Position numbers and translations under genes: made by a program. Shown here piece by piece: positions 7,298-33,828 of a stretch of 34,479 nucleotides of DNA (positions are counted from its first letter, which is position 1; every line of letters starts with the position of its first letter). Source of the stretch: Eubacteriales bacterium. GTDB taxonomy: Bacteria > Bacillota > Clostridia > Oscillospirales > CAG-382. The stretch spans positions 1 through 34,479 of the forward strand of contig JAZUJV010000145.1 of NCBI GenBank assembly GCA_045642945.1. Reading direction: 5' to 3'. The notes under the pieces are model-generated. The model had not been told where the DNA came from. It was given only the letters and a program-made list of their open reading frames with translations, and did no database searches.

Positions 7298-7304
7298 TGC
7301 CGTT

Positions 7305-7480
7305 TCCCGATATAATTTGCAAAAAGCAAATTTCGATATATTTCCGCTATCGCGGAAATTCGATATGAAATGCGCCTCGGCGCATTTCACGAATATAACC
7401 CCAATCTTGCCCCGCAGGGCATATCGAAAATCCCGCAAGGGACTTATTCCGCTGCGGAGCGTCTCTTAGGATGCTCCGCA
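7305..7480. repeat. family-1 hairpin-array repeat, copy a
   Basis: Six or seven short hairpins are separated by TCGATAT / ATATCGA linkers. They include AATTTGC-AAAAA-GCAAATT, ATTTCCGC-TATC-GCGGAAAT, GAAATGCGC-CTCG-GCGCATTTC, TGCCC-CGCA-GGGCA, TCCC-GCAA-GGGA and GCGGAGC-N11-GCTCCGC. The reverse complement of 7406-7441 matches 20754-20790 at 36 of 37 positions. Confidence 0.75.
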
Positions 7481-7801: not shown

Positions 7802-9622
7802 ATGAACGTCTCCGAACAAAACAGATATAAAGTTACCGGATATATCGCTTATCATCTTCTTCCGGTATCGGCGCTGTTCGTGATCTGTTCGCTTGTTTCG
7901 CTGTTCGGCGAGGTCGATCTGTTTCCCAATAAAGCTTCCGCGTGGGTATGCTTTGCGGCGGCGCTGATCGCCGTTTTGCTCCCGATGCTTTCGATGCTTC
8001 TTATGCGGTTCGGCGCGCCGAAGCTTTTCGGGCACGCGGTAATGCTCGGTGCGCTTGCCGAAGCGGCGCTGACGACCATATTCTTCGGGCTTTGCGCGCT
8101 TCCGCTGTTCATACTGCCGATGATACTTTCGATATACTACCAAAAGAGGCGGATGACGAAATATGCTTCCGCCGTCGGCGCTTCGCTGATGCCCGTTTCT
8201 GCGCTTATATCATATTTCTGTAAGACGGGAACGTTTTATTCGGGCGCGGAAAAATCGGACGCCGCCTTCTATGCCGAGCTCGCCGCGCTTTTCGTGATCC
8301 TCATATCCGAATGTGCCGCCGTCGTCTCGGTATCGGTTTACAGCATAAAGCTGACGAATTTTCAAAAAAGTCTCGCGAGCACCGTCGCGAAGGACGAACG
8401 CCTCGGCGTTTTCAGCCGCGGACAGTTCCAGCTCACGATGAAACAAAGGCTCGAGCGCGGCGATATGCTCGTCGTTACCGACATCGTGAAATTCTCGGTC
8501 TTCAACGAGCTTTTCGGCCACGAAGCGGGCGACAAGCTGCTTAAAGGCATAGCCGACCTGCTTATAAAATACACCGGCGAAAACGGGATAGTCGGGCGCC
8601 TCGGCGACGACCACCTCATTTTCCTGATACAAAAAGACTCCTACGACCCCGAAAAGCTCGTCTCGATGCTTTTCCATAACGAGGAGCTCGCGGGGAATCT
8701 TCATTACACGGTGGATACAATCTGCGGCGTTTACGAAATAACCGACGGGCGCATCTCCGCCGAGGTCATGTGCGACCGTGCTCTTATGGCGGTTCACAGC
8801 CAGAAGGCGAAAACCGAGGGTTTGGCGGTCTACCGCGAATCCATGCTCTACGACGCGCGCAAGAGCAAAGAGTTCCTCGCGGAATTAAAAACCGCGCTCG
8901 ACCAGAACCAGTTTATCCTGTTCTTACAGCCGCAATGCACGTCCGACGGAACGGTTACGGGCGCCGAGGTGCTTTCGAGATGGCAGCACCCCGACAGAGG
9001 CATAGTCCACCCGAACGTTTTCATCCCGATATGCGAGGAATACGGGCTTATCTCCCGCCTCGACCTCGATATATGGGAAAAAGCGGCGGAGACGATAGCC
9101 GATTGGAACGCGAGAGGAAAAAAAGAATTATCGCTTTCGATAAACCTGTCGCTCGTCGACCTGTATGAAATGGACGTTTACAAAGAGCTGCTCGGCATCA
9201 CTAAGAAATACAAAATAGACCCGAAGCGGCTCCACCTCGAAATAACCGAAACGGGACTTATGAAGGACCTTAAACGAATGGTCGAGATAATCGAAAATCT
9301 GCGCGGGGCGGGCTTCATAGTCGAAATAGACGATTTCGGGAACGGGAATTCCTCGCTCGGGATGCTTAGCGAAATAGAAGTCGACGCGATAAAGCTCGAT
9401 ATTTCCTTCATCAAGCGGCTTGAAACGGGCAAAAACGCCGTAACCGTATTAAAAATCATCACCGAGCTCGTAAAAAGCCTCGGTACGCTTCCGATAGTCG
9501 AAGGCGTCGAAAACAAAGAACAGTTAAAAATTCTTACCGAAATAGGATACGAGCATTTTCAGGGTTATTATTTCGGAAAACCGATGTCGGTTTCCGAATT
9601 CGAAGAAAAATTCATGCAGTAA
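7802..9622 (+). CDS. membrane-anchored degenerate-GGDEF / EAL c-di-GMP phosphodiesterase
   Basis: 606 aa with a GGGAGGGA RBS and roughly 5-6 N-terminal hydrophobic segments. The GGDEF position reads RLGDDHL (degenerate, no RxxD). The EAL domain carries GAEVLSRW, SINLS, LEITET, EIDDFGNGNSSL, KLD, EGVE and QGYYFGKP. Confidence 0.9.
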   Translation: MNVSEQNRYKVTGYIAYHLLPVSALFVICSLVSLFGEVDLFPNKASAWVCFAAALIAVLLPMLSMLLMRFGAPKLFGHAVMLGALAEAALTTIFFGLCALPLFILPMILSIYYQKRRMTKYASAVGASLMPVSALISYFCKTGTFYSGAEKSDAAFYAELAALFVILISECAAVVSVSVYSIKLTNFQKSLASTVAKDERLGVFSRGQFQLTMKQRLERGDMLVVTDIVKFSVFNELFGHEAGDKLLKGIADLLIKYTGENGIVGRLGDDHLIFLIQKDSYDPEKLVSMLFHNEELAGNLHYTVDTICGVYEITDGRISAEVMCDRALMAVHSQKAKTEGLAVYRESMLYDARKSKEFLAELKTALDQNQFILFLQPQCTSDGTVTGAEVLSRWQHPDRGIVHPNVFIPICEEYGLISRLDLDIWEKAAETIADWNARGKKELSLSINLSLVDLYEMDVYKELLGITKKYKIDPKRLHLEITETGLMKDLKRMVEIIENLRGAGFIVEIDDFGNGNSSLGMLSEIEVDAIKLDISFIKRLETGKNAVTVLKIITELVKSLGTLPIVEGVENKEQLKILTEIGYEHFQGYYFGKPMSVSEFEEKFMQ

Positions 9623-9646
9623 AATTCCGCGGAAGGAGGACCGCAC

Positions 9647-11734
9647 ATGACGGATACCGTGCTTATAACGGGATATACCGATTTTATAACCGACGATTTC
9701 ATCGCCAACGCTTTTCCGCACCACCGTGTGGTCATCACCGGCGGTACACAGGTAAAAAACTCGTCCGAAAACAAGGTCTCTGTATATAAAGGAGACCTCG
9801 ACGAAGCGGCGTGCCGCAAGCTTTTCAGAATGTACGATTTCGAAAAAGTCGTGTTCTTCTCGGGCGGGACCGCGCCTTTCTGCACGATAGACGGCGACGA
9901 GCTCGAAAAACTTCCGGTCGTGCTTTCCCATTGCGGCGAGGACACGAAAATACTTTACGTTATGGGCAACGAGCACCCCTCGACCGACCCCGCTTCCGTT
10001 ATCGAATTCGCGGCGAAGGAGATATGCGGAAGAAGCTCCTACCGAACGCAGGGCGTGAACATCGTCGTTTCTCCGTGGATATACGATATGTACGCGCCGC
10101 AGCCCGCGCTTTTCGGATATTTCGAAAAGGGGCTCCATACCATTCCGTTCTCCGCGGGGCAGGAGCTGTCTTTCCTCGCGGCGGAGGACCTCGCGCTGCT
10201 TATTTTCAGGATGTTCGATAACTGGGATATCTCGATAGAGCCCTATTACGTCGCGAACGTTTTCGTCGATACCGCCGAAAAATTCACTCTGCTCGCCGAA
10301 AGAGAGCTCGGGACCGACGACGTTTCCTACGAATTCACCGAATCGCGCCGCTATGACCTGACCGCGTGGAAAAACACCGAGCTTCGCACGAGGTTCATGT
10401 GGTTCCCCGTCTATTCGTTTTTCGAGGACCTGCCCAAAATAATCAGCCATTATAAAGAATCCAAGCCCAAAAAGGCGGGACTTCTCGACAGGATACTCAA
10501 AAAGAACAACATCATAATCCGTATCCTCGAGCTTCTCGTCGGATATGCGATATGCGAATTCCTTATGAGGATAACCGGCGTGGATATCCATTTCAAAATG
10601 ATAGATTTCCGCCTCCTTTACGTCGTCGTCATCGGAATAATGTACGATATGTATATGGGGCTCGCCGCGGCGCTTATCGCCTCGATATCACTCGTTTTCG
10701 CCTATTTCCGCGGCGGAACGAGCTGGCTCAACCTGTTCTACGAGCCGGCGAACTGGCTGCCGTTCATCGCGTATTTCACGGTCGGCGCTCTTTGCGGATA
10801 TATAAGGGCGAGAGACCGCGACCTGCTGACGTTTTCAAAAAACGAAACGACGTCTATTCAGGAAAGATACGATTATCTTATTTCGATAAACGAAGATATC
10901 CTTCAGGAAAAGAAGGATTACAAACAGCAGATAATCGGAAGCCGCGACAGCTTCGGCAAGATTTTCAAAATAACCCGACAGCTCGACGACGTAAACCCGA
11001 AATATATCCTCGCGAGGGCGACGGAGATAATCGAAAACGTTATGTCGAACCCGAGCGTCGGGATATACAACTGCAACTGCGGACGCAATTTCGGCAGGCT
11101 CGCCATCTCGTCAAGGGGCGTCGAGTTCCCGTTCTCGCAGATGATGAAGCCGTTTTACGATAAGCTCGAAATTCTCGCCGACGGCGAGGTATACGTCAAC
11201 CGCGACCTCGAAGAGGGTATGCCGAAATATATGTACGCCATAAGGAAAAACGGCGAGATAGATACCGTAATAATGCTTAAATACGCGGAATACAGCCAGA
11301 TGACGCTTTATTACGAAAACCTTTTCAAGGTCCTCTGCGGGCTGATATCGAGCTCGCTTATCCGCGCCTCCGATTACCAAAGCGTCGTCCACGAGGCAAA
11401 AACGGTCAAAGGCACCGAAAACGTTTTATCCTCCGAATTTTTCAAAGAAGAATTAAGGCTCGCGCTCGACAGCCGCGAAAAGAACCTTGCCACTCACCTT
11501 CTTATAAGGATCCCCTGTGCCGAGGAAGAGCTCGCCGAAAAGGAAAAGCTCGCGGCGAAATGCGTCAGGAACACCGACGAGCTCGGCTATTCTGACGGCT
11601 TTATCTACGTGCTTCTTTATCAGGCTCTGCCGCGGGATACCGAATTTATCCTGCCGAGGTTTTCGGACGCGGGATTGACGTGTGAGTTTCTCGACATCGA
11701 CGCGCAAAGCGAGTTTGCGGGGGACGAACGATGA
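9647..11734 (+). CDS. pelD: PelD-like c-di-GMP receptor (degenerate SDR-like domain, 4 TM, GAF-like, degenerate GGDEF)
   Basis: 695 aa with a GGAAGGAGGA RBS. The N-terminus VLITGYTDFITDDF is a degenerate Rossmann motif. A central hydrophobic block (ILELLVGYAICEF...FTVGALCGYI) follows. The C-terminus has RNTD five residues ahead of SDGFI in place of GGDEF. The gene sits directly ahead of the pelE/A/F/G-like genes. Confidence 0.75.
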   Translation: MTDTVLITGYTDFITDDFIANAFPHHRVVITGGTQVKNSSENKVSVYKGDLDEAACRKLFRMYDFEKVVFFSGGTAPFCTIDGDELEKLPVVLSHCGEDTKILYVMGNEHPSTDPASVIEFAAKEICGRSSYRTQGVNIVVSPWIYDMYAPQPALFGYFEKGLHTIPFSAGQELSFLAAEDLALLIFRMFDNWDISIEPYYVANVFVDTAEKFTLLAERELGTDDVSYEFTESRRYDLTAWKNTELRTRFMWFPVYSFFEDLPKIISHYKESKPKKAGLLDRILKKNNIIIRILELLVGYAICEFLMRITGVDIHFKMIDFRLLYVVVIGIMYDMYMGLAAALIASISLVFAYFRGGTSWLNLFYEPANWLPFIAYFTVGALCGYIRARDRDLLTFSKNETTSIQERYDYLISINEDILQEKKDYKQQIIGSRDSFGKIFKITRQLDDVNPKYILARATEIIENVMSNPSVGIYNCNCGRNFGRLAISSRGVEFPFSQMMKPFYDKLEILADGEVYVNRDLEEGMPKYMYAIRKNGEIDTVIMLKYAEYSQMTLYYENLFKVLCGLISSSLIRASDYQSVVHEAKTVKGTENVLSSEFFKEELRLALDSREKNLATHLLIRIPCAEEELAEKEKLAAKCVRNTDELGYSDGFIYVLLYQALPRDTEFILPRFSDAGLTCEFLDIDAQSEFAGDER

Positions 11735-20744: not shown

Positions 20745-20852
20745 CGAAATTAACCCTTTGCGGGATTTTCGATATGCCCTGCGGGGCAAGAAAAAAATAC
20801 TTGAAATGCGCTTCGGCGCATTTCATATCGAATTTGTCTTAGGCAAATATCG
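20745..20852. repeat. family-1 hairpin-array repeat, copy b (inverted relative to copy a)
   Basis: The sequence is CCCTTTGCGGGATTTTCGATATGCCCTGCGGGGCAAG (20754-20790), then GAAATGCGC-TTCG-GCGCATTTC (20803-20824), then ATATCGAATTT-hairpin-AAATATCGAAA. It is colinear with the reverse complement of 7333-7441. Confidence 0.75.
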
Positions 20853-24981: not shown

Positions 24982-27495
24982 TTATTCTATCCCGATAACG
25001 TTATATCCCGCTTCCTCGACGGCGGCTTTCAAAACCGCGTCGGCGACCTCTTTTTTAAGCGTTACCGTCGCTTTTTTCTCGACGTGCGAAGCTTTTACGC
25101 TCTCGACGCCGTCTATCGCAAGTAATGCTTTTTCGGTATGCGCTTCGCAATGCGGGCACATCATGCCCTCGATCTTTAAAATTTTCGTCATTTTGTTTTC
25201 CTCTTTTCCCGCTTTGTTTTTTTCGTTTATTTCTTTTACCGTTTCGGTTACGTCGATTTTTTGCTTTTTCGCTCTGCGCGGTTTTCTTATGTCAAAAAGG
25301 TTTAGCCGAAGCGAATTCATCACTACGCAAAAACTCGAAAGACTCATCGCCGCGGCGCATATCATCGGCGAAAGCGTTATCCCGAGCAACTTTTCATAGC
25401 ACCCCGCGGCGAGAGGGATGCAGAGCAGATTATAAAAGAACGCCCAGAATAAATTTTCGTAGATGTTTTTAAGCGTCGCGCGGGAAAGTCTTATCGCGGC
25501 GGGGATATCTTTAAGATTTTCGCGTAACAGCACGATTTCCGCCGAAGCGATCGCGATATCCGTCCCGCTTCCGAAAGCGGCGCCGATATCCGCGACGGTC
25601 AGCGCGGGCGAATCGTTTATCCCGTCGCCGACCATCATCGTTTTTCCGTTCTTTTTCAAAACGCTTACCGCGTCCGCTTTCCCGTTCGGGAGCACCGACG
25701 CGATAATATTTTTTATGCCCGCAAGAGCACCGACGTTCAAAGCCGTTTTTTCGTTGTCGCCCGTCAGCATGACGGTTGCAAGACCTAAATCCTCAAGCTC
25801 GCGCACGGCGTCTTTCGAGCTTTCTTTTATCGCGTCCGCCACGGCGATCATCCCGAAAATTCCGTCCCCGTCCGCGAAGACCGAAACGGTATATCCCTTT
25901 TCGGCAAGCGCGTTTATCTCGGCGCTTATCTCTTTGTCGACGCCGACTTTTTCTCTTATAAAGCCCGCCGACCCGCCGAAAATTTCTTTGTTTTCGATTT
26001 TCGCGCTTATCCCGAAGCCCGAAAAGCTTTTAAAGCTTTCCGCTTCGAAAAGTGCGAGCTTTCTGTTTTCCGCTTCTTTGACTATCGCTTTCGCTATCGG
26101 GTGCTCGCTGTTTTTTTCAATCGACGCGGCGCAGCGTAAAACCGTTTCTTCGTCTTGACGAAGCGCCTTTATAAAAGCGACCTGCGGCTCGCCTTTCGTT
26201 ACCGTGCCGGTTTTGTCGAGAACGACTATATCGGTTTTTCCCGCGTTTTCGAGCGCCGAAGCGCTTTTAAAAAGGATCCCGTTTCTCGCGCCGACGCCGC
26301 TTCCGACCATGATCGCCACGGGCGTCGCCAACCCGAGCGCGCACGGACAGCTTATCACGAGCACCGATATCGCCCTCGCGAGCGCGAAAGATACTTCCCG
26401 CCCGATAATTAGCCATATCACGAGCGTCAAGACCGCGATAAACACCACCGCGGGCACGAAAACCGCCGAAACTTTGTCCGCCGCCTTCGCCACCGGCGCT
26501 TTCGACGCCGAGGAATCCGCCACGGTTTTTATTATTTTCGCAAGCGTCGTGTCCTCGCCCACGCTTTCGGCTCTGCATTTAATATATCCCGAAATATTTA
26601 TCGTCGCGGCGGAAACTCTGTCCCCCGCCGACTTGTCCGCCGGAAGGCTCTCGCCCGTCAGCGCCGATTCGTCTATCGCCGCTTCGCCGCTTATTATCAC
26701 CGCGTCCACAGGCACGCTTTCGCCGGGTCTCACCGCGAAAACGTCGCCGACTTTTACAAATTCCGCGGGGACTTTCGTCTCCTCGCCGTTTTCGTTTATC
26801 AAAGTCGCTTCCGAGGGTTTAAGCTTTATAAGCTCTTTTAAAGCGCCCGTCGTCTTCCCTTTGCTCTTCGCTTCAAGCAATTTTCCGACGGTTATAAGCA
26901 CGAGTATCATCGCCGCGGACTCGAAATAAAAGTCGTTTTTTATATTCGAAGCGTCCCGCCCCGCGTTTTCCTCGATAAACGCCCTTACCACCGCGAAAAC
27001 GCTCCATAAAAACGACGTCAGCGACCCGAGCGATACGAGCGTATCCATATTCGGCGCGAGGTGAATTACCCCTTTTATCCCCGAAACAAAGAATTTTTTG
27101 TTTATTATCATCACGGCGAGCGCCAGAACGCCTTCCGCCGCGCCCAAAAGCCGGATTTCATCAAAAATTTTCGCCTGCGGCAAACCTATCATCGGCCCCA
27201 TCGAAAGATATAAAAGCAGGATAAGGAAGAGCGCGCTCGCGATAAGCCGCCTTAAAAGTATCGGCGTCTCTTTGTCAATAAGCGAGGAGAAAATGTCGTT
27301 TTTCGGCGCCGCGCCGTAGCCCGCGTCCTCGACGGCTTTTATTATTTCGCCGTCCGTCGCGCTTCCTTCGACGGCAAGCGTATTCGTGAGTAAACTCACC
27401 GAGCAATTCTCGACGCCCTTTACCGCTTTTACCGCCTTTTCCACCCGCGCGCTGCACGCCGCGCAGCTCATGCCCGTAACGTCAAACTGCCGCAA
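24982..27495 (-). CDS. copA: copper-translocating P1B-type ATPase with N- and C-terminal HMA domains
   Basis: 837 aa, with a TTG start 9 nt after AAGGAGG. The N-terminal HMA has GMSCAACSARVEKAV. Other motifs are CPC (SCPCALGLATP), DKTGT (LDKTGTVT) and GDGINDSPAL. The C-terminal HMA has GMMCPHCEAHTEKAL. Confidence 0.92.
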   Translation of the reverse strand: MRQFDVTGMSCAACSARVEKAVKAVKGVENCSVSLLTNTLAVEGSATDGEIIKAVEDAGYGAAPKNDIFSSLIDKETPILLRRLIASALFLILLLYLSMGPMIGLPQAKIFDEIRLLGAAEGVLALAVMIINKKFFVSGIKGVIHLAPNMDTLVSLGSLTSFLWSVFAVVRAFIEENAGRDASNIKNDFYFESAAMILVLITVGKLLEAKSKGKTTGALKELIKLKPSEATLINENGEETKVPAEFVKVGDVFAVRPGESVPVDAVIISGEAAIDESALTGESLPADKSAGDRVSAATINISGYIKCRAESVGEDTTLAKIIKTVADSSASKAPVAKAADKVSAVFVPAVVFIAVLTLVIWLIIGREVSFALARAISVLVISCPCALGLATPVAIMVGSGVGARNGILFKSASALENAGKTDIVVLDKTGTVTKGEPQVAFIKALRQDEETVLRCAASIEKNSEHPIAKAIVKEAENRKLALFEAESFKSFSGFGISAKIENKEIFGGSAGFIREKVGVDKEISAEINALAEKGYTVSVFADGDGIFGMIAVADAIKESSKDAVRELEDLGLATVMLTGDNEKTALNVGALAGIKNIIASVLPNGKADAVSVLKKNGKTMMVGDGINDSPALTVADIGAAFGSGTDIAIASAEIVLLRENLKDIPAAIRLSRATLKNIYENLFWAFFYNLLCIPLAAGCYEKLLGITLSPMICAAAMSLSSFCVVMNSLRLNLFDIRKPRRAKKQKIDVTETVKEINEKNKAGKEENKMTKILKIEGMMCPHCEAHTEKALLAIDGVESVKASHVEKKATVTLKKEVADAVLKAAVEEAGYNVIGIE

Positions 27496-27644
27496 AACTT
27501 ACTTTCCTCCTTTCGCGACGATTGTAAAATGGCGCAGACCGCACAAAAAGAAAAATGAAAATTCTTGTCAGTCTGAAATTTCTACCGCTTTTTCGGTAGC
27601 TTTCTCTTATTTTGCACCATTTTTATAAAAAAATCAAGCCTTTT

Positions 27645-27971
27645 AAGAGATAAACGCCTTCGGCGCGATATCAAAAGAGATAAGCGCCTTCGGCGCGATA
27701 TGAGAGATAAACTCGGCTTCGCCGAGTGAGATAAGACTGCTTCGCAGTCGTTAAGGAATATAATTTTTATTATATTTCTTCCTTTTTGAAAAAAGGAAGC
27801 GAAAAACTTTTGAAGCTATATAATAAAAAATCATTTGCGCAAGCAAATGTTCCTTAACTTGCAAATTGCTTGGCAATTTGCAATTATCTCGTTTGCGAAG
27901 CAAACTTATCTCTCATATCGTTCGCGAAGCGAACTTATATCTTTTTTCGTTCGCGAAGCGAACTTATCTCT
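27645..27971. repeat. family-2 hairpin-array repeat, copy a (327 bp, about 11 hairpins, imperfect long palindrome)
   Basis: Left arm: AGAGATAA linkers separate the TTC-loop hairpins GCGCC-TTC-GGCGC, ACTCGGC-TTC-GCCGAGT and GACTGC-TTC-GCAGTC. Centre: AATATAAT-TTTT-ATTATATT, CTTCCTTTTT-GA-AAAAAGGAAG and CATTTGC-GCAA-GCAAATG. Right arm: TTATCTC(T) linkers separate GTTTGC-GAA-GCAAAC and two copies of GTTCGC-GAA-GCGAAC. The first 60 nt match 30601-30660 at 59 of 60 positions. Confidence 0.85.
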
Positions 27972-28012
27972 AAACGCAAAAACGCCGCGAAGCTCCCGCT
28001 CCGCGGCGTTTT
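27972..28012 (-). terminator. Rho-independent terminator after the 28022-28924 gene
   Basis: AACGCCGCG (27981-27989) pairs with CGCGGCGTT (28002-28010). On the minus strand TTTGCGTTT follows. It sits immediately downstream of the stop at 28022. Confidence 0.6.
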
Positions 28013-28021
28013 GATTAAACT

Positions 28022-28924
28022 TTATATCTTCTCTAAAATTATCATACCCTCTGCGTAGCTCAGCCCGTCGTCCGTCAGCTTCATCTCGCAATACGTCGTC
28101 GTTACGCCGTCGATCTCGCGCTCGCTGTGGGTATCGTAATAATATTTCCCGCCGAGCGTTTTCCATTCCGTCTGCTCGATAACGGCGTATTCGCCGCGAA
28201 GCGCGATAATGTCGCCGCCTTCGAGCGCCGCGTCGATTTCTTCCTTCGAAATACCTTCGGGAAGCTTGAAAAGCGTGTTGAGCTTATGGTCCTCGGTGAA
28301 CTCGAAGCGGGACTCGAAGACCTGAAGCCCTTCGGCTATCTCGTCTTCCTCGATTTCGCCCGCGGCAAGCTGTTTTTTAAGGTTCGCCTCGATCTCCTCG
28401 CGGGTGAAAGCGCCGATCTTGTCGTCTATCATCGCGAAGGATTTTTTAACGGCATACGTGCCGACGAGCGTCATGTCGTTTTTATCTTCTTCGCTCGGCT
28501 CGATATCGTTTATGCTCGGCTCTTCGGTAACGTGGCCTTCCTCGATCTTCTTCATCCCGACAGACAAAAATCCTATCGAGAAGCAAAGAAAACCGTCGAC
28601 CATCATAAGCTTTTCGGCGTTGTCGCGGAAGACCCCCTCGGGGATATCCATGAACGCGCCGAGCGTATAGCGGAATTCGATGAATCCCGTCTGTTCCCAT
28701 GTCCCTTTTTCGTCTTTTCCTTCGGCGCCGTTATGAAGAAGCACGGTGTGGTCCTCGAAAAACTCGAAGGTCATATCCGAAAAATCTTTTCCGTCGTCGC
28801 TTTTGAATTCTTTTGCGGGGATGCGCGCAAGATCGTTTGAAAACGCGTTTACGACGAATTCCACCTGCCATTTGCCGCAGATGAGCTTAAGCCCGTCGTG
28901 AAGTTCCGATTTGTCAAGTTCCAT
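28022..28924 (-). CDS. hypothetical acidic cytoplasmic protein with an internal two-module duplication
   Basis: 300 aa with an AGGAGGGTAAAC RBS, no signal peptide and no TM. Two halves share the motif DMTFEFFEDHTVLL / SRFEFTEDHKLNTL. No family recognised. Confidence 0.7.
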   Translation of the reverse strand: MELDKSELHDGLKLICGKWQVEFVVNAFSNDLARIPAKEFKSDDGKDFSDMTFEFFEDHTVLLHNGAEGKDEKGTWEQTGFIEFRYTLGAFMDIPEGVFRDNAEKLMMVDGFLCFSIGFLSVGMKKIEEGHVTEEPSINDIEPSEEDKNDMTLVGTYAVKKSFAMIDDKIGAFTREEIEANLKKQLAAGEIEEDEIAEGLQVFESRFEFTEDHKLNTLFKLPEGISKEEIDAALEGGDIIALRGEYAVIEQTEWKTLGGKYYYDTHSEREIDGVTTTYCEMKLTDDGLSYAEGMIILEKI

Positions 28925-28944
28925 AATTGCGTTTACCCTCCTGA

Positions 28945-29283
28945 TTATTTAATGATTTCTTTAATTCTTTTAAACACTCTTAAAAGCCGCCCGTCCTCGA
29001 TAGTCGAGCATATCGCCCCGTCGCAGAACCTTTCGGCGCGGTAAAACGAAGTAAGCGTCGCGGCGAGCTCTTTTATGTCCATTTCCTCGATCTCTATGCC
29101 CTTTTCCTCGATTTCCTCACAATGCGCGATATAATCGAAGTCGGGATCAAGCAGATAAAGCGCGTTTCCGATCTCGGCGGGATAAGGACACGTCGGCGTC
29201 CATTCGGGCGCTTCACAGCTTTCAAGATACGCTATCGCGTCGTCGAGGATTTTTTTGTTTTCCCCACTCATTTTCGTTTTCAT
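28945..29283 (-). CDS. hypothetical small protein
   Basis: 112 aa, 20 nt upstream of the 28022-28924 gene on the same strand. Cys-containing (ESCEAPEWTPTCPYP, HCEE, FCDGAIC). No family recognised with confidence. Confidence 0.65.
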   Translation of the reverse strand: MKTKMSGENKKILDDAIAYLESCEAPEWTPTCPYPAEIGNALYLLDPDFDYIAHCEEIEEKGIEIEEMDIKELAATLTSFYRAERFCDGAICSTIEDGRLLRVFKRIKEIIK

Positions 29284-29439
29284 CTTTGCTTCCCGCCTTT
29301 CTTTTTTTAAATTATAGCATATAAAAACCGATTTTTATATAGCAAATCGTAAATTTTTATGCGTTCACGCCGAATTTTATTGAATTTTTCCCGAAAATAT
29401 GCTATTGTTTTTAAAAATCACGCATTAACGGAGCGCGAA

Positions 29440-30609
29440 ATGGACGCCGAAGCTTACAAAAAATCAATTTACGCCGACAACGCCGCCACGACGAAGATGA
29501 GCGAGACGGCATTGCGCGCCTATCTTGACTGCGCCGCAAAGGCGTTCGCCAACCCGTCTTCCGACCACGAAGCGGGCATGGAGGCGAAAAAATATCTCGA
29601 AGAGGCGCGAAAAACCGTCAAGGACGCTTTTTCCGCCGCAAACGGAAAAGTCATTTTCACGTCCTGCGGGAGCGAGGCGGTGAACCAGGCCATCCTTTCC
29701 GCCGCGAGATACGGAAAGTCGCTTTGCAAAAAGCATATCATAACCACCTCTTTCGAGCATCACGCCGTTTTAAAAACGGTAAAATCGCTTGAAAATGCGG
29801 GCTTCGAAGCGACCTGTCTGCCCATTCAAAGGAACGGTATCGTGAAGCTCGCCGACGTCGAAAAAGCGTTTCGCGAAGACACGTTTCTCGTAAGCGTCAT
29901 GGCGGTAAACAACGAAATCGGCACGATCCAGCCGATAAAACAAATCGGCAGGCTTTGTAAAAAACACGGCGTGCTTTTCCACGTCGACGGCGTTCAGGCG
30001 GCGGGAAAAATACCGATAAATATCGAGGAATCAAATATCGACTACCTCGCGATATCCGCCCACAAATTCCGCGGGCCGAAAGGCGTCGGAGCGCTGATTG
30101 TTTCCGAAAAAGCGCCGCTGACCCCGCTTATTCTCGGCGGCTCGCAGGAATTTTCGCTTCGCGCGGGGACCGAAAACGTCCAAAGCGTCTATTCTATGGC
30201 GAAAGCGCTTGACGAAGCGATAAAAAATATGGAGCACGACGCCGAATACGTCGCTTCGCTTCGCGACCGCCTCGAAAAAGGGCTTTTACAAATTCCCGGG
30301 ACGGCGGTCAACGGCGACCCGAAAAAGCGTATCCCCGGCACTTTGAATATCGCTTTCCGCGGCGTGAACGGTAAATCGCTTCTCTTTATGCTTGACGCTG
30401 TCGAGCATATCCGCGCTTCCGGCGGCGCCGCCTGCACCTCGGGCGACGGTCAGCCGAGCTATACGTTAAAAGCCATGGGGCTTTCCGACGAGCGCGCCTT
30501 CTCCTCCCTCCGCTTCTCGCTCTCCGCCGATAATACCCCTTCCGACGTCGAACGAATCATCTCCGCCACCGCGCGCTGTGTAGAAAAACTGAAAGAGCAA
30601 AAGAGATAA
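29440..30609 (+). CDS. class V aminotransferase-fold cysteine desulfurase (NifS/IscS family)
   Basis: The start is placed at MDAEAYKKSIYADNAATT (ATG 29440, ACGGAG upstream); the track start at 29359 adds an unlikely 27 aa. It has the PLP-lysine motif ISAHKFRGPKG and the catalytic loop SGGAACTSG. The stop codon TAA (30607-30609) lies inside the first AAGAGATAA unit of repeat copy b. Confidence 0.88.
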   Translation: MDAEAYKKSIYADNAATTKMSETALRAYLDCAAKAFANPSSDHEAGMEAKKYLEEARKTVKDAFSAANGKVIFTSCGSEAVNQAILSAARYGKSLCKKHIITTSFEHHAVLKTVKSLENAGFEATCLPIQRNGIVKLADVEKAFREDTFLVSVMAVNNEIGTIQPIKQIGRLCKKHGVLFHVDGVQAAGKIPINIEESNIDYLAISAHKFRGPKGVGALIVSEKAPLTPLILGGSQEFSLRAGTENVQSVYSMAKALDEAIKNMEHDAEYVASLRDRLEKGLLQIPGTAVNGDPKKRIPGTLNIAFRGVNGKSLLFMLDAVEHIRASGGAACTSGDGQPSYTLKAMGLSDERAFSSLRFSLSADNTPSDVERIISATARCVEKLKEQKR

Positions 30610-31013
30610 ACGCCTTCGGCGCGATATCAAAAGAGATAAACGCCTTCGGCGCGATATGAGAGATAATTGACGCTCCGCGTCAAGAGATAAGACTGCTTCG
30701 CAGTCGTTAAGGAATAAATTTTTATCGTATATCTTCCTTTTTGAAAAAAGGAAGCGAAAAACTTTCAAAGCTATACAATGAAAATCCATTTGCGGTAGCA
30801 TTTGTACCTTAACGTTTGCGAAGCAAACTTATCTCGCTCGGCGAAGCCGAGTTTATCTCTCATATCGTTCGCGAAGCGAACTTATCTCTTTCATTCGCGT
30901 CAGCATTTGTACCTTAACGACTGCCAAGCAGTCTTATCTCGCTCGGCGGAGCCGAGTTTATCTCTCATATCGTTTGCGAAGCGAACTTATCTCTTTCGTT
31001 CGCGCAAGCGAAT
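30601..31013. repeat. family-2 hairpin-array repeat, copy b (413 bp, right arm tandemly duplicated)
   Basis: The linker scaffold is the same as in copy a. The third left-arm hairpin is replaced by TTGACGC-TCC-GCGTCAA. The right arm is present twice with a 105-bp period (30798-30902 and 30903-31007). Linkers are identical between the two units but the first hairpin differs (GTTTGC-GAA-GCAAAC versus GACTGC-CAA-GCAGTC). Confidence 0.85.
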
Positions 31014-31032
31014 ATACATAAAGGAGCAAGCT

Positions 31033-33828
31033 ATGAAAAAGTTTTTGAGCGTTTTCCTTTCTCTTTTGACCGTTTTGACGGTTTTCGCGGCGTTTTCTTT
31101 TGAAAGCGCGCTCGCGGAGACCGTTATCACGAACGTCAACCCCGTCATCACCTGCGACGCGGGCGAAAAAATAGCCCTTTCGGGTTACACCGTCATATTC
31201 GACGGCGACACCTCCGCGACGAAGGTCGACAAATGGCAGCTCGACGGAAAAACCGTAACCGAGTTCACGCCCTCCGCAAAAGGCGTTACCAAGCTTACCG
31301 CCGTCGCGGGCGGCAAGCAGAAGACCGTCTACGTCGTCGCGAAGAACAAAACTGACGACGAATACGTTCTTTACGAGACCGATTTTTCGGAATTTTCGAC
31401 GCTTCAGGATATGAAGAACGCGGGCTGGAAGTTCCTTAACGCCGACAGCTATTATTCGATAAGCGGCGGCATCCTCAAAATAGGCAGCCAGAGCCACGAC
31501 TACGTTCGCGCCATCCTTCCTGAATGGCTCGGCGATTTCGGTCAGTACGCTATCACCACCGATATCAAAATGACCGAAGCGAAGGACAGCGGCAGATGGT
31601 TCGGCGTCGTTTACCGTATCCAGAACGCTAACGGCAATTATTATCCCTACTATCACATGTGCATCCGCTGCAACACCACGTCAAGTAACGGCATCGAGTT
31701 CGCCGAAAGGACAACGAGCAACAGCTGGAACGTCGCGACGACGACGGCGGGCGAAGTCGGCGATATGAAAAACGGCTTCCACACCGTAAAGGTCGAAGCT
31801 TTCGACACCGTCGTTAAATATTCGATGGACGACACCCAGCTTTTATACGTAACCAACTCGGTCATCGGTGCGAGCACCAAGGTTTACACCAAAGGTCAGC
31901 TCGGTATCACGATGAACTACGGCGTTACCGCCGTCGACAACATCAAGGTATGCGTTCAGAAGACCACTCCCGAAAGATATTCCGCACCGACCAATCTTAC
32001 GAACAACGAGCATCAGCAAATCTCTTTCCGCAACCCGATAGCTATCGTTGACACCGTCGCTTCCGCAAGCGAAGTCGAAAAGAGCATGGGCAACGCATAT
32101 ATTGAAGTAAACGGCAAGGACATGAACGATTTCCTTAAAAAATGCGTTGACGAAAATGTCCTCCCGAACTTCTACTGCAAGACGAACGCCGACGTTGACA
32201 AAGTTATCAGCGCGACGCTCAAAACCTCGACGAAAGACCTCTCGGTCATCTCTCCGAGCGCGAGCGTTCTCGCCTACGCGAAGAGCAAAAAGCCGCAGGC
32301 GAGGACCGGACTTGAGATAAATCTCACGAAAGACACGCTTTCTTCCGAAGAGGCGAACGAATACCGTCTCGCGATAAGAAAAGCGCCCGCCACCTTCTGC
32401 GTTATCTCCTCCGAGCACGCGACGCATCAGGTCGTCGCCGAATTGCAGGAGCTCGCCGTCGCGGTCTGGGTAAAGGTCGAAGCCGACGAGGGCGAAGACT
32501 TTATCGTTGAATCCGCGAAAGCGCTGAACTGCGGCGCGAACGGCGTTATCTGCTACGACGCGAAGGCGCTCGCCGACGTTATGAACACCTATTACGCTTC
32601 TACCGCCATGACGCGCGTTCCGATGGTCATTGGCCACCGCGGAAACCCGACTCAGGCGATGGAAAACTCGCTCGACAGCTATAGAAAAGCTTATGAGAAC
32701 GGCGCGGACGTTTTCGAAATCGACGTTTATATCACCAAGGACAAAGAAATCGTCATCATGCACGATAACACCATCACCCGCACCACCAACTACACGGGCT
32801 CGACGACTATCGCGAATATGACGCTTAAAGAGATAAAGAGCTATCGACTTCTTAACCTTGACGGCACGGTTTCGACTCAGGAAGTTCCGACGATGCGCGA
32901 GCTTTGTAAAGAATTCTGCGACAAAGACATAAGAATATTCGTCGAATTCAAATCCGGCACGAACGAAACCATTCAGAAAACTCTTGATATCGTCAAAGAG
33001 TTCGACATGGAAGACCGCATCGACGTTATCTCGTTCGGCGCGGACGCGCTCACCTACACCCAGCAGCAGATACCCGGTATGTCCACCGGCTACCTCTGCT
33101 CCGGCGGCAGCATCGCATCCGTCGAGGACGCGATAAACACCTTCTATTCCTACTGGACCACCGCGAACTCCGTCAAGAGCTCGGTCAACCCGAACGCGAC
33201 TAACCCCGACTTTATCCAGGTAGGTACCGACCGCGGCGTAACGATTTGGCCGTGGACCTTCACCTCCTCCAACAACAACAACGCGTTCCTTTCCGGCTGC
33301 GACGGTATCACCACCAACGATTGCCAGTGGTTCAAGAACATGTATAAATACGTCGTTGCTTCGAAAGACAGCGAAGATCTTGAGATCGGCGACACCTCCA
33401 AGACGACCGTCAAGGGCGAGATATTCCAGAGACAGATAAAGGACGTCGCTCCTTCGCGCGTCGTGGTTCTTAAAGGCGGCGAGCATATTACCGTAAGCGG
33501 CGCAAGCGTAAAGGGCAAGAGCGCGGGCGAAGCCGTAGTTATGTACGAATACAAAACGAAAACTTACGGCGGCACCGAATATACGCTTTATACCCAGCCC
33601 GTTACGATAACCGTCGTTGATTCCTCCGAGAAGACCGGCGATGTCGACGGCAACGGCAAGGTCGAATCAAAAGACTATCTTCTTCTTAAAAGGTACTGCC
33701 TTCGGACTCTTGATCTTACTGATAATCAGCTCCGCCGCGGTGATATTGATAAAAATAATAAAGTCGACGCGAAAGACTACGGGCTCTTGAAGCGCGCATG
33801 TCTTGGAACTTACACTATTGCCGACTGA
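31033..33828 (+). CDS. secreted multidomain protein: LamG/DUF1080-like domain, glycerophosphodiester phosphodiesterase (GDPD) domain, Ig-like domain and C-terminal dockerin
   Basis: The ATG at 31033 lies 6 nt after AAGGAG; the track start at 30802 reads through the repeat. It has a signal peptide (MKKFLSVFLSLLTVLTVFAAFSFESALA). The GDPD signature is VIGHRGNPTQAMENSLDSYRKAYENGADVFEIDVYITKDKEIVIMHD. The dockerin duplicated Ca-binding loops are GDVDGNGKVESKDY and GDIDKNNKVDAKDY. Confidence 0.88.
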   Translation: MKKFLSVFLSLLTVLTVFAAFSFESALAETVITNVNPVITCDAGEKIALSGYTVIFDGDTSATKVDKWQLDGKTVTEFTPSAKGVTKLTAVAGGKQKTVYVVAKNKTDDEYVLYETDFSEFSTLQDMKNAGWKFLNADSYYSISGGILKIGSQSHDYVRAILPEWLGDFGQYAITTDIKMTEAKDSGRWFGVVYRIQNANGNYYPYYHMCIRCNTTSSNGIEFAERTTSNSWNVATTTAGEVGDMKNGFHTVKVEAFDTVVKYSMDDTQLLYVTNSVIGASTKVYTKGQLGITMNYGVTAVDNIKVCVQKTTPERYSAPTNLTNNEHQQISFRNPIAIVDTVASASEVEKSMGNAYIEVNGKDMNDFLKKCVDENVLPNFYCKTNADVDKVISATLKTSTKDLSVISPSASVLAYAKSKKPQARTGLEINLTKDTLSSEEANEYRLAIRKAPATFCVISSEHATHQVVAELQELAVAVWVKVEADEGEDFIVESAKALNCGANGVICYDAKALADVMNTYYASTAMTRVPMVIGHRGNPTQAMENSLDSYRKAYENGADVFEIDVYITKDKEIVIMHDNTITRTTNYTGSTTIANMTLKEIKSYRLLNLDGTVSTQEVPTMRELCKEFCDKDIRIFVEFKSGTNETIQKTLDIVKEFDMEDRIDVISFGADALTYTQQQIPGMSTGYLCSGGSIASVEDAINTFYSYWTTANSVKSSVNPNATNPDFIQVGTDRGVTIWPWTFTSSNNNNAFLSGCDGITTNDCQWFKNMYKYVVASKDSEDLEIGDTSKTTVKGEIFQRQIKDVAPSRVVVLKGGEHITVSGASVKGKSAGEAVVMYEYKTKTYGGTEYTLYTQPVTITVVDSSEKTGDVDGNGKVESKDYLLLKRYCLRTLDLTDNQLRRGDIDKNNKVDAKDYGLLKRACLGTYTIAD

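Follow-up and report, generated by a model that had tools for sequence, protein, structure and literature searches.

Family-2, a modular hairpin-array repeat with invariant linkers and interchangeable mini-hairpins at intergenic sites of an equine-gut Clostridia lineage

The window analysed here, i.e. the whole 34,479-nt NCBI contig, carries a chromosomal gene set (a CopA-like ATPase, a NifS/IscS-like desulfurase, a dockerin-bearing GDPD protein, a Pel-like exopolysaccharide operon and histidine kinases), and its close relatives carry the label Candidatus Coliplasma equi or "Clostridiales bacterium", i.e. equine-gut Clostridia. Two copies of a hairpin-array element, referred to as Family-2, are found in this window. 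No coding capacity was found in the element, and every copy in the window and in the related contigs is intergenic, lying at gene 3' ends or beside terminators. The two copies, their parts and the adjoining genes are as follows.

24982-27495, minus strand: CopA-like ATPase gene, the promoter region of which adjoins copy 1.
27646-27971 (326 bp), no strand assigned: Family-2 copy 1 (left arm, core and right arm), between the terminator of ORF 28022-28924 (minus strand) and the CopA promoter.
27646-27758, minus strand: left arm of copy 1, with the linkers AGAGATAA, GATATCAAAAGAGATAA, GATATGAGAGATAA, GAGATAA and GTTAAGGAA.
27654-27666, 27684-27696, 27711-27727 and 27735-27749: left-arm hairpins H4L, H3L, H2L and H1L of copy 1, respectively.
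27759-27831, plus strand: AT-rich core of copy 1, with the hairpin CTTCCTTTT-TGAA-AAAAGGAAG at 27778-27799.
27832-27971, plus strand: right arm of copy 1, with the linkers TTCCTTAAC, TTATCTC, TTATCTCTCATATC, TTATATCTTTTTTC and TTATCTCT.
27832-27849, 27859-27883, 27891-27905, 27920-27934 and 27949-27963: right-arm hairpins H0 (GCAA loop), H1R, H2R, H3R and H4R of copy 1, respectively.
28022-28924, minus strand: ORF, the terminator of which adjoins copy 1.
29440-30609, plus strand: NifS/IscS-like gene, adjoining copy 2.
30602-31013 (412 bp), no strand assigned: Family-2 copy 2, between the NifS/IscS-like gene and the GDPD-dockerin gene.
30602-30714, minus strand: left arm of copy 2, with the scaffold of copy 1; H2L is TTGACGC-TCC-GCGTCAA, compared with ACTCGGC-TTC-GCCGAGT in copy 1.
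30715-30786, plus strand: core of copy 2.
30787-30891, plus strand: right-arm repeat a of copy 2, consisting of a decayed H0a, TACCTTAAC, GTTTGC-GAA-GCAAAC, TTATCTC, GCTCGGC-GAA-GCCGAGT, TTATCTCTCATATC, GTTCGC-GAA-GCGAAC and TTATCTCTTT.
30892-31013, plus strand: right-arm repeat b of copy 2, which duplicates repeat a in tandem (105 nt, 90 % identity) and is followed by a terminal hairpin.
30998-31013: H4Rb, the terminal hairpin of copy 2 (GCAA loop).
31033-33828, plus strand: GDPD-dockerin gene, adjoining copy 2.

The sequence-only reading from which this analysis started had described copy 1 as a 327-bp element with about 11 hairpins; the hairpin number stands (four per arm, H0 and two in the core), while the span is corrected to 326 bp, with the exact termini AGAGATAA at 27646 and TTATCTCT at 27971. 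The second copy, placed by that reading at 30601-31013, is real and starts at 30602, and the near-identity of the first 60 nt of the two copies (59/60) was confirmed. The core of copy 1 contains a 34-nt stretch that is identical in copy 2, and copy 2 is the longer one because its right arm holds a 105-nt tandem duplication (30787-30891 and 30892-30996). Its first linker, AGAGATAA, provides the final two codons and the TAA stop of NifS. Since the AT-rich core is not symmetric, the element has an orientation; both window copies are found in the same one, although the neighbouring genes lie on opposite strands. Considering its position between a terminator and the CopA promoter, copy 1 need not be transcribed. 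Copy 2, on the other hand, is the sole sequence separating NifS from the GDPD gene, and since the promoter/terminator scan found no promoter-like site before the latter, it is probably co-transcribed with the flanking genes and may have an effect at the RNA level.

Read on the outward strand, i.e. minus for left arms and plus for right arms, each unit is a mini-hairpin (5-7 bp stem, GAA/GGA triloop, GCGNAGC context) followed by the conserved tail TTATCTC(T...). About four such units form each of the two mirror-image arms around the core, with the scaffold T(T/A)CCTTAAC-H1-TTATCTC-H2-TTATCTCTCATATC-H3-TTATCTCTTT...-H4-TTATCTCT (5' to 3' from the core), and the right arm has H0, with its GCAA loop, as an additional hairpin. 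The left-arm units of copy 1 accordingly read, on the minus strand, as a hairpin with a GAA loop and then TTATCTC. The linkers are spaced at around 22-30 bp, as direct repeats within an arm and inverted between arms. The terminal octamer (AGAGATAA/TTATCTCT) occurs 17 times in the window (1.06 expected), with 13 of these occurrences within the two elements. Arm comparison in both copies confirmed the earlier observation that the arms are reverse complements of each other at the linkers and not at the stems, and across five arms 34 of 40 linker columns were invariant, compared with 12 of 47 hairpin columns (Fisher p = 3e-8). These data show that the tails and linkers are constrained in sequence, whereas for the hairpins the only constraint is folding. 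Among orthologues, the invariance of the linkers carries no information in this respect, since the neighbouring intergenic DNA is also around 98 % identical, and among paralogous arms it could stem partly from conversion and not from protein recognition. The hexamer ATATCG, considered as a motif common to the hairpin-array families, is over-represented throughout the window (90 occurrences, 34 expected) and thus uninformative.

Perfect triloop hairpins with a stem of at least 5 bp number seven per element, compared with 0.7-0.8 in dinucleotide shuffles (maximum 5 in 1000). Covariation was assessed on 17 different hairpin variants, drawn from both the window and the relatives and aligned on their loops, i.e. 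GAA (12), GGA (3), CAA (1) and TTG (1). Paired stem cells amounted to 96-97 %, compared with 27-41 % when the registers were slid by 1-3 columns; five of the six stem pairs showed double changes, the closing pair was always C-G, and the covariation score of 0.87-0.92 was reached by none of 500 shuffles, which scored 0.18-0.22. The pairing and covariation tests therefore bear out the claim that pairing is kept while the hairpin sequence varies. The sequence-only reading had gone further and described the exchanged stems as unrelated; this overstates the case, since they come from a small repertoire (GCGCC, CTCGGC, GACTGC, GTTTGC, GTTCGC, TTGACGC, GTTCGGC and others) that recurs across slots and arms. 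One of its two examples of a swap between copies 1 and 2, i.e. GTTTGC-GAA-GCAAAC and GACTGC-CAA-GCAGTC, was misplaced, as this difference is found between the tandem duplicates of copy 2, the stems of which differ in two of six base pairs. The modular assembly that it had considered is supported by slot swapping, unit loss, duplication and cassette replacement at an orthologous locus.

Much of the wholesale hairpin swapping is better explained by conversion between arms or copies than by independent compensatory mutation. Stepwise compensation also occurs, as the G·T intermediate GTTTGC/GCGAAC, standing between GTTCGC/GCGAAC and GTTTGC/GCAAAC in a stepwise stem series, does show. Hairpin-opening footprints (P-nucleotides) were rejected as a source of the palindromes, the stems being a small GC-rich repertoire with fixed loops and not random flanking sequence.

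Evidence on the form in which these hairpins act comes from their strand polarity. All 12 GCGNAGC motifs of the two elements are located on the outward strand, i.e. on the minus strand in the left arms and on the plus strand in the right arms. The six scorable imperfect stem pairs, with the decayed H0b of copy 2 as an exception, are wobbles (G·T) when read outward and A·C mismatches on the opposite strand, an argument that rests on six events, not all of them independent. To our knowledge, triloops of the GCGNAGC kind are not among the usual stable RNA loops. As DNA, in turn, GCGNAGC, GCGNNAGC and CCGAAGG are extraordinarily stable mini-hairpin motifs, which are known from the priming sites of phage G4 and RSF1010 ssiA and are used, with GAA/GGA loops, by the hairpin promoters of phage N4 (PMC13037366). 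Since the favourable strand changes from one arm to the other, it could not be present for both arms in any single transcript. We infer that the Family-2 units are of importance as single-stranded DNA, each arm using the strand opposite to that of the other.

The same motifs raise the question of whether the units are single-strand initiation signals or hairpin promoters for a primase or a phage-type RNA polymerase, with the element as an array or decoy. Stems of 5-7 bp and 3-nt GAA/GGA loops in GCGAAGC, GCGGAGC and CCGAAGG are indeed the motifs of the N4 mini-vRNAP promoter and RSF1010 ssiA (PMC13037366), every hairpin has a conserved tail on its 3' side, and the arms lie on opposite strands, like ssiA and ssiB. 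However, the likeness is at the level of the motif class, no primase, phage or plasmid context is present, and the copies are chromosomal, intergenic and dispensable in relatives (see below), which makes this explanation very improbable.

Syntenic relatives, i.e. contigs of the Candidatus Coliplasma lineage, were reached via 90 %-identity protein clusters of the window proteins. The CopA promoter is adjoined by the left arm and core of copy 1 in the relatives L168 and L171, and by the left arm only in L170, where the core has been lost. All three lack the right arm of copy 1, ORF 28022-28924 and the DUF6508 gene, and the copy 1 remnant is joined directly to the region upstream of NifS. The deletion junction joins GCTATATAA to AACCGATT in L168 and L171, and TATTTC to GCCCGCC in L170, each at a microhomology with window sequence near 29290-29330; because the junctions differ, two independent deletions starting in the copy 1 core have to be assumed. 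The left arm of L171 consists of three units, not four. In L168 and L171, which lack copy 2, the NifS stop comes two codons sooner; a solo GTATGC-GAA-GCAAAC hairpin comes next, and the gene further downstream is a different one. Contig L172, from the sample of L168, harbours the GDPD gene elsewhere; upstream of it lies a right arm without a partner, the orthologue of repeat b of copy 2, and downstream the start of a third Family-2 copy, which is absent from the window.

Family-2 copies or half-copies thus occupy approximately three or more loci in the window and related contigs, and the third locus, the solo arms and the site lacking copy 2 place the family beyond the two sites known from the sequence-only reading. 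The presence/absence comparison which that reading had proposed shows strains differing in the presence of the element, in unit number and in the hairpin found in each slot, and the deletions as well as the synteny breaks begin inside elements. No hairpin arrays were found in around 56 kb from the more distant relatives L164, L166 and L167.

Replacement of hairpins is most apparent at the orthologous copy 1 locus, where the adjacent promoter DNA shows 3 differences in around 150 nt (around 98 % identity) and yet two hairpins have been replaced: H1L reads GACTGC-TTC-GCAGTC in the window as against GTCCGGC-TTC-GCCGAAC in the relatives, and for H2L of copy 1 the corresponding pair is ACTCGGC-TTC-GCCGAGT (window) and TTGACGC-T(T/C)C-GCGTCAA (relatives). 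Within genomes, H1L is of the GTCCGGC type in both copies of the L170 genome and GACTGC in both copies of the window genome, and this matching of paralogues within each genome amounts to concerted evolution (conversion). The converted segments of the window correspond to the reverse complement of a right arm of the repeat b/L172 type, with 4 differences in 62 nt by our reading, and span H1L and H2L in copy 1 and only H1L in copy 2. They would fit conversion tracts starting at the palindrome centre, a suggestion that, like the hairpin sharing between families considered below, draws on few, partly non-independent events.

The ends of the element also invite a reading of the arms as terminal inverted repeats of a DDE-type transposon, with the linkers as transposase sites, as in the ends of Tn7, Mu and IS21 or in eukaryotic Foldback elements, and the 326-bp form as its MITE; alternatively, the linkers could be iterons for another double-stranded-DNA-binding protein. 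A perfect 8-bp terminal inverted repeat (AGAGATAA...TTATCTCT), a left terminus (AGAGATAA) that is identical at all three loci, the direct arrangement of the linkers within an arm and their inversion between arms, as well as the small, non-coding and polymorphic nature of the element, agree with this. The flanks, however, are TTTTA/AAACG at copy 1, GCAAA at the left of copy 2 and TTTCG at the left of the third site in L172, and no target-site duplication was present at any end of these copies. No clean empty site was found; the flank also differs at every polymorphic site. Moreover, binding of double-stranded DNA gives no reason why every spacer should be a perfect hairpin in which changes are compensated, the closing pair is fixed as C-G and wobbles are strand-specific, and no transposase was found nearby. 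We therefore regard this explanation as quite unlikely.

Both strands of both elements fold better than shuffled sequences (z = -10 to -13), the minimum-free-energy folds being rods, and the core and linkers are highly conserved between the copies. The sequence-only reading had listed a large structured RNA among its candidates, in which case the whole element would be a non-coding RNA gene folding into a rod of stacked four-way junctions, with the linkers pairing across the arms. Linker-linker helices, however, follow trivially from the inversion of the conserved linkers, and two strands that fold equally well are the signature of a DNA palindrome. In addition, the presumed linker helices contain mismatches without compensation, i.e. 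GTTAAGGAA opposite TACCTTAAC in both duplicates of copy 2 and AGAGATAA opposite TTATATCT in copy 1; in relatives, arms that stand alone have retained intact linkers and perfect hairpins; the wobble-bearing strand and the GCGNAGC loops change between arms; no promoter inside the element and no Rfam match were found; and copy 1 is sited between a terminator and a promoter. The structured-RNA explanation is the weakest of the rivals considered here, and we hold it to be extremely improbable. A promoter in the core and a small core ORF (23 aa, no ribosome-binding site) were considered separately and found no support, nor did DnaA, Spo0A or CodY boxes in the element.

A more modest role for RNA would be that of a cis-acting element, the arrays serving as weak tandem intrinsic terminators, 3'-exonuclease barriers or insulators, as described for REP/BIME and BOX, and being kept for that effect. 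On the outward strand the units do score as terminator-like (GC-rich hairpin plus TTATCTCTTT), with 21 sites in 27300-31300 compared with 7.1 expected, the majority falling within the elements. As RNA, the element folds very stably, the symmetry would permit function in either orientation, and copy 2, placed as it is between NifS and GDPD, is probably transcribed. At copy 1 and the third locus in L172, however, a terminator would be redundant, since both lie just past a canonical one. The stems are short (5-7 bp) and the U-tracts poor, the loops are nearly all triloops of the DNA mini-hairpin type and not GNRA or UUCG, relatives do without copy 2 or without one arm of copy 1 beside the same genes, and the invariant 14-17-nt linkers are left unexplained. 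Retention for such an RNA effect is therefore unlikely.

In the collections covered, the element corresponds to no described one, and the sequence-only reading had not recognized one either: Rfam gave no matches at gathering thresholds in the whole window and only chance-level matches (E >= 1) in 27500-31100, and blastn against plasmids and phages returned nothing relevant. Patterns built on the linker scaffold had 6 matches in the GTDB representatives, all of them simple tandem repeats or due to chance, and 36 in the JGI metagenomes, none with linkers in both orientations; in IMG/VR, the loose three-linker pattern retrieved only unrelated tandem repeats and the two specific patterns nothing. 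Six-frame peptides of the element, used as queries for spurious ORFs on other copies, had no matches, and a query of concatenated lineage-specific proteins led only to relatives of 30-34 % identity. No transposase or HUH gene was found in the 34.5-kb window (Pfam; tblastn with approximate IS200/IS608 TnpA queries) or in the related loci examined, nor was a parent IS with matching ends detected in plasmids, phages, IMG/VR, the GTDB representatives or the JGI metagenomes.

Taken together, we favour, with about even confidence, a reading of Family-2 as a dispersed, non-coding, modular DNA repeat of the REP/BIME or foldback-MITE kind, the units of which would serve as recognition modules in single-stranded DNA. 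Each hairpin with its tail would act as one such module, and a protein encoded elsewhere in the genome would bind or cleave at the linkers. The likeliest candidate for this protein would be a Y1/HUH enzyme, favoured because a hairpin with a conserved 3' tail, presented as single-stranded DNA, is the architecture recognized by HUH endonucleases (i.e. RAYT on REP, IS200/IS605 TnpA and relaxases), RepB' primase and N4 vRNAP; by this analogy, a trans-acting HUH/Y1 partner is a possible, if tentative, assignment. TnpA of the IS200/IS605 type is common in Clostridia, and in Ton-Hoang's model REP arrays arise from circular intermediates processed by RAYT. The linkers would be read as sequence and the hairpins as shape, and the arrays would be reshuffled by slippage and short-tract conversion, destabilizing their surroundings. 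Hairpin cassettes may thereby be exchanged between arms and copies through short-tract conversion or template switching, with the 7-17-nt linkers providing homology and the tracts beginning at the palindrome centre. Any cellular role, e.g. the protection of mRNA ends when the element is transcribed, would be secondary.

It is tempting to speculate further that the mobile unit is the single cassette of 22-30 nt (mini-hairpin plus linker), which an HUH-type enzyme would excise and reinsert at the TTATCTC linker in single-stranded form. Much like a single-stranded-DNA integron, an array would in this way gain, lose and swap cassettes, and the Family-1, -2 and -3 linker dialects would draw on a shared hairpin pool. 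We consider the single-cassette proposal a long shot; if true, the single cassette would be the smallest transposable unit known and would represent a new route to array formation.

Among known systems, Family-2 works most like REP/BIME/REPIN with their RAYT. Common to both are short GC-rich extragenic palindromes in composite arrays, a conserved short sequence beside a hairpin with a variable stem, an inverted arrangement able to fold back (as in REPIN), a location at gene 3' ends, homogenization within a genome and a proposed single-stranded-DNA mechanism. Two REP hallmarks fail nevertheless, i.e. the tag and the alternating orientation. REP palindromes carry a GTAG (or CGTC) tetranucleotide tag at one end (PMC3733652), whereas the Family-2 units are flanked by TTATCTC/GAGATAA, with no systematic GTAG/CTAC or CGTC/GACG; and while REPs alternate in BIMEs, the Family-2 units keep the same orientation within an arm and flip only once, at the core. 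REPs are imperfect palindromes of 20-40 nt present in many copies; the palindromes of Family-2 are perfect or near-perfect, measure 13-17 nt and are all intergenic, and around three loci were seen, together with two sister families. The much smaller triloop hairpins, longer invariant linkers, defined asymmetric core and Clostridium host are further differences from REP; the published surveys examined mention no REP/RAYT system from Clostridia, and no RAYT is known for Family-2.

Pneumococcal BOX elements have the structure boxA-boxB(n)-boxC, with modules of 45-59 nt that are conserved in sequence. Like Family-2, they are modular, non-coding and intergenic, with a variable number of hairpin modules, partly complementary ends and a long stable fold, and we know of no autonomous parent for them, a trait likewise common to Family-2. 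The modules of Family-2 are shorter (around 22-30 nt), and conservation is confined to the linker, one hairpin sequence being exchangeable for another. With MITE and Foldback elements, Family-2 has in common a size of 326-412 bp without an ORF, the perfect 8-bp terminal inverted repeat, arms made of sub-repeats and presence/absence differences between strains, but it differs in having no target-site duplication, no known parent IS and obligate hairpins between the sub-repeats.

The ends of IS200/IS605 and PATE elements resemble the units in that a hairpin and a nearby conserved cleavage sequence are read as single-stranded DNA and insertion causes no duplication; their ends carry a single hairpin each, both on one strand and without inverted repeats, as opposed to four per arm, with the arms inverted and on opposite strands. 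The inverted terminal repeat of parvoviruses (AAV) is a large palindrome with two small internal palindromic arms that is read as single-stranded DNA by an HUH protein. Here the likeness to Family-2 is one of architecture alone, without implied homology, since one is the end of a viral replicon and the other a chromosomal bacterial repeat with eight or more arms. Family-2 is set apart from all of these by its design of invariant linkers and free hairpins, the strand-switched mirror arms, the DNA mini-hairpin loops, the rapid turnover of cassettes and the existence of at least two sister families with other linkers.

Bacterial repeats that pair sequence-invariant linkers with hairpins constrained by structure only are rare, and Family-2 separates what is read as sequence from what must only fold. 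Its turnover is fast, with hairpins replaced wholesale between strains whose flanks are around 98 % identical and copies homogenized within a genome. If a dedicated enzyme exists, either a REP/RAYT-like or a new single-stranded-DNA recombination system would be extended to Firmicutes.

Family-1 is a second hairpin-array family in the window, with other linkers and the same design, and a third hairpin array, again with other linkers, is found on contig L172. The ends of the 13.5-kb exopolysaccharide island coincide exactly with arrays of this sister Family-1. Considering that the elements coincide with deletions, a synteny break and island ends, they may be a main driver of plasticity in this uncultured gut lineage. 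Short-read assemblies of these genomes are also broken by such hairpin arrays; breaks of contigs at the elements were considered as a sign of high copy number, but are already explained by the two known copies.

Both sides of a 13.5-kb segment of the window are flanked by hairpin arrays of Family-1, i.e.:

7303-7450, Family-1 hairpin array
20745-20852, Family-1 hairpin array, inverted relative to the first

The two arrays have TCGATAT/ATATCGAA linkers and share the hairpin TGAAATGCGC-YTCG-GCGCATTTCA, while the segment between them encodes GGDEF-EAL, a Pel-like EPS operon, CotH, VTC and DUF4956. In the related strain contig L168 (2880-2940), the entire segment is missing as one block and is replaced by around 10 nt, with the same two terminators on either side. 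Therefore, the Family-1 arrays coincide with the exact ends of a strain-variable island.

In the Family-2 elements, invariant linkers alternate with mini-hairpins, and two genes of the window have their stop codon within a linker octamer. The TAA stop of the NifS gene lies within AGAGATAA (30602-30609) of element 2, from which the gene gains two codons compared with relatives lacking this element. Likewise, the TAA of ORF 28022-28924 lies within AGATATAA (TTATATCT on the plus strand; 28022-28029), an octamer placed just past the terminator adjoining element 1.

At the expected position of element 2, two related strains carry a single hairpin without linkers directly 3' of the NifS stop:

L168 11166-11185, solo hairpin GTATGC-GAA-GCAAAC
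L171 2838-2856, solo hairpin GTATGC-GAA-GCAAAC

This hairpin matches the Family-2 module GTTTGC-GAA-GCAAAC at 14 of 15 positions, and could represent what is left of an element, or else the seed of one. Synteny is lost at this point, where the relatives have a GGDEF gene and the window a GDPD gene.

The surroundings of element 1 also differ between strains. When compared with window positions 27963-28924, a 93% identical strain (L162 1-130, Logan SRR21150820) still carries the terminator along with element 1 at its right end, with ORF 28022-28924 nearly all gone from this strain; no Pfam domain was found in the 300-aa product of this ORF. On the other side, the stretch separating element 1 from the start codon of CopA contains the following feature:

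27582-27599, inverted repeat CTACCGCTTTTTCGGTAG

Its resemblance to a copper-repressor (CsoR-type) operator makes this repeat a candidate for one.

A third hairpin-array family was found on a contig from the same sample as L168:

L172 1120-1290, hairpin array adjoining a tRNA-Val gene

This array combines ACAATCGGTC and AACGGAGT linkers with hairpins that carry TTC/GAA triloops. One of these hairpins, TGACGC-TTC-GCGTCA, matches the left-arm hairpin slot H2L of Family-2 in L168 without a mismatch over 15 nt. Since a palindrome with a fixed loop leaves only four free bases, the likelihood of sharing by chance is not negligible.

The same contig is also rich in hairpins at 9460-9860, upstream of its solo right arm, i.e. 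in order a core-like hairpin GTTCCTTTT-CGAG-AAAAGGAAC, then CGAAAAGC, followed by CTTACTTTTTT-CGAG-AAAAAAGTAAG and CGCGAAAG-TAAA-CTTTCGCG. This stretch includes an additional, decayed copy of the right-arm start.
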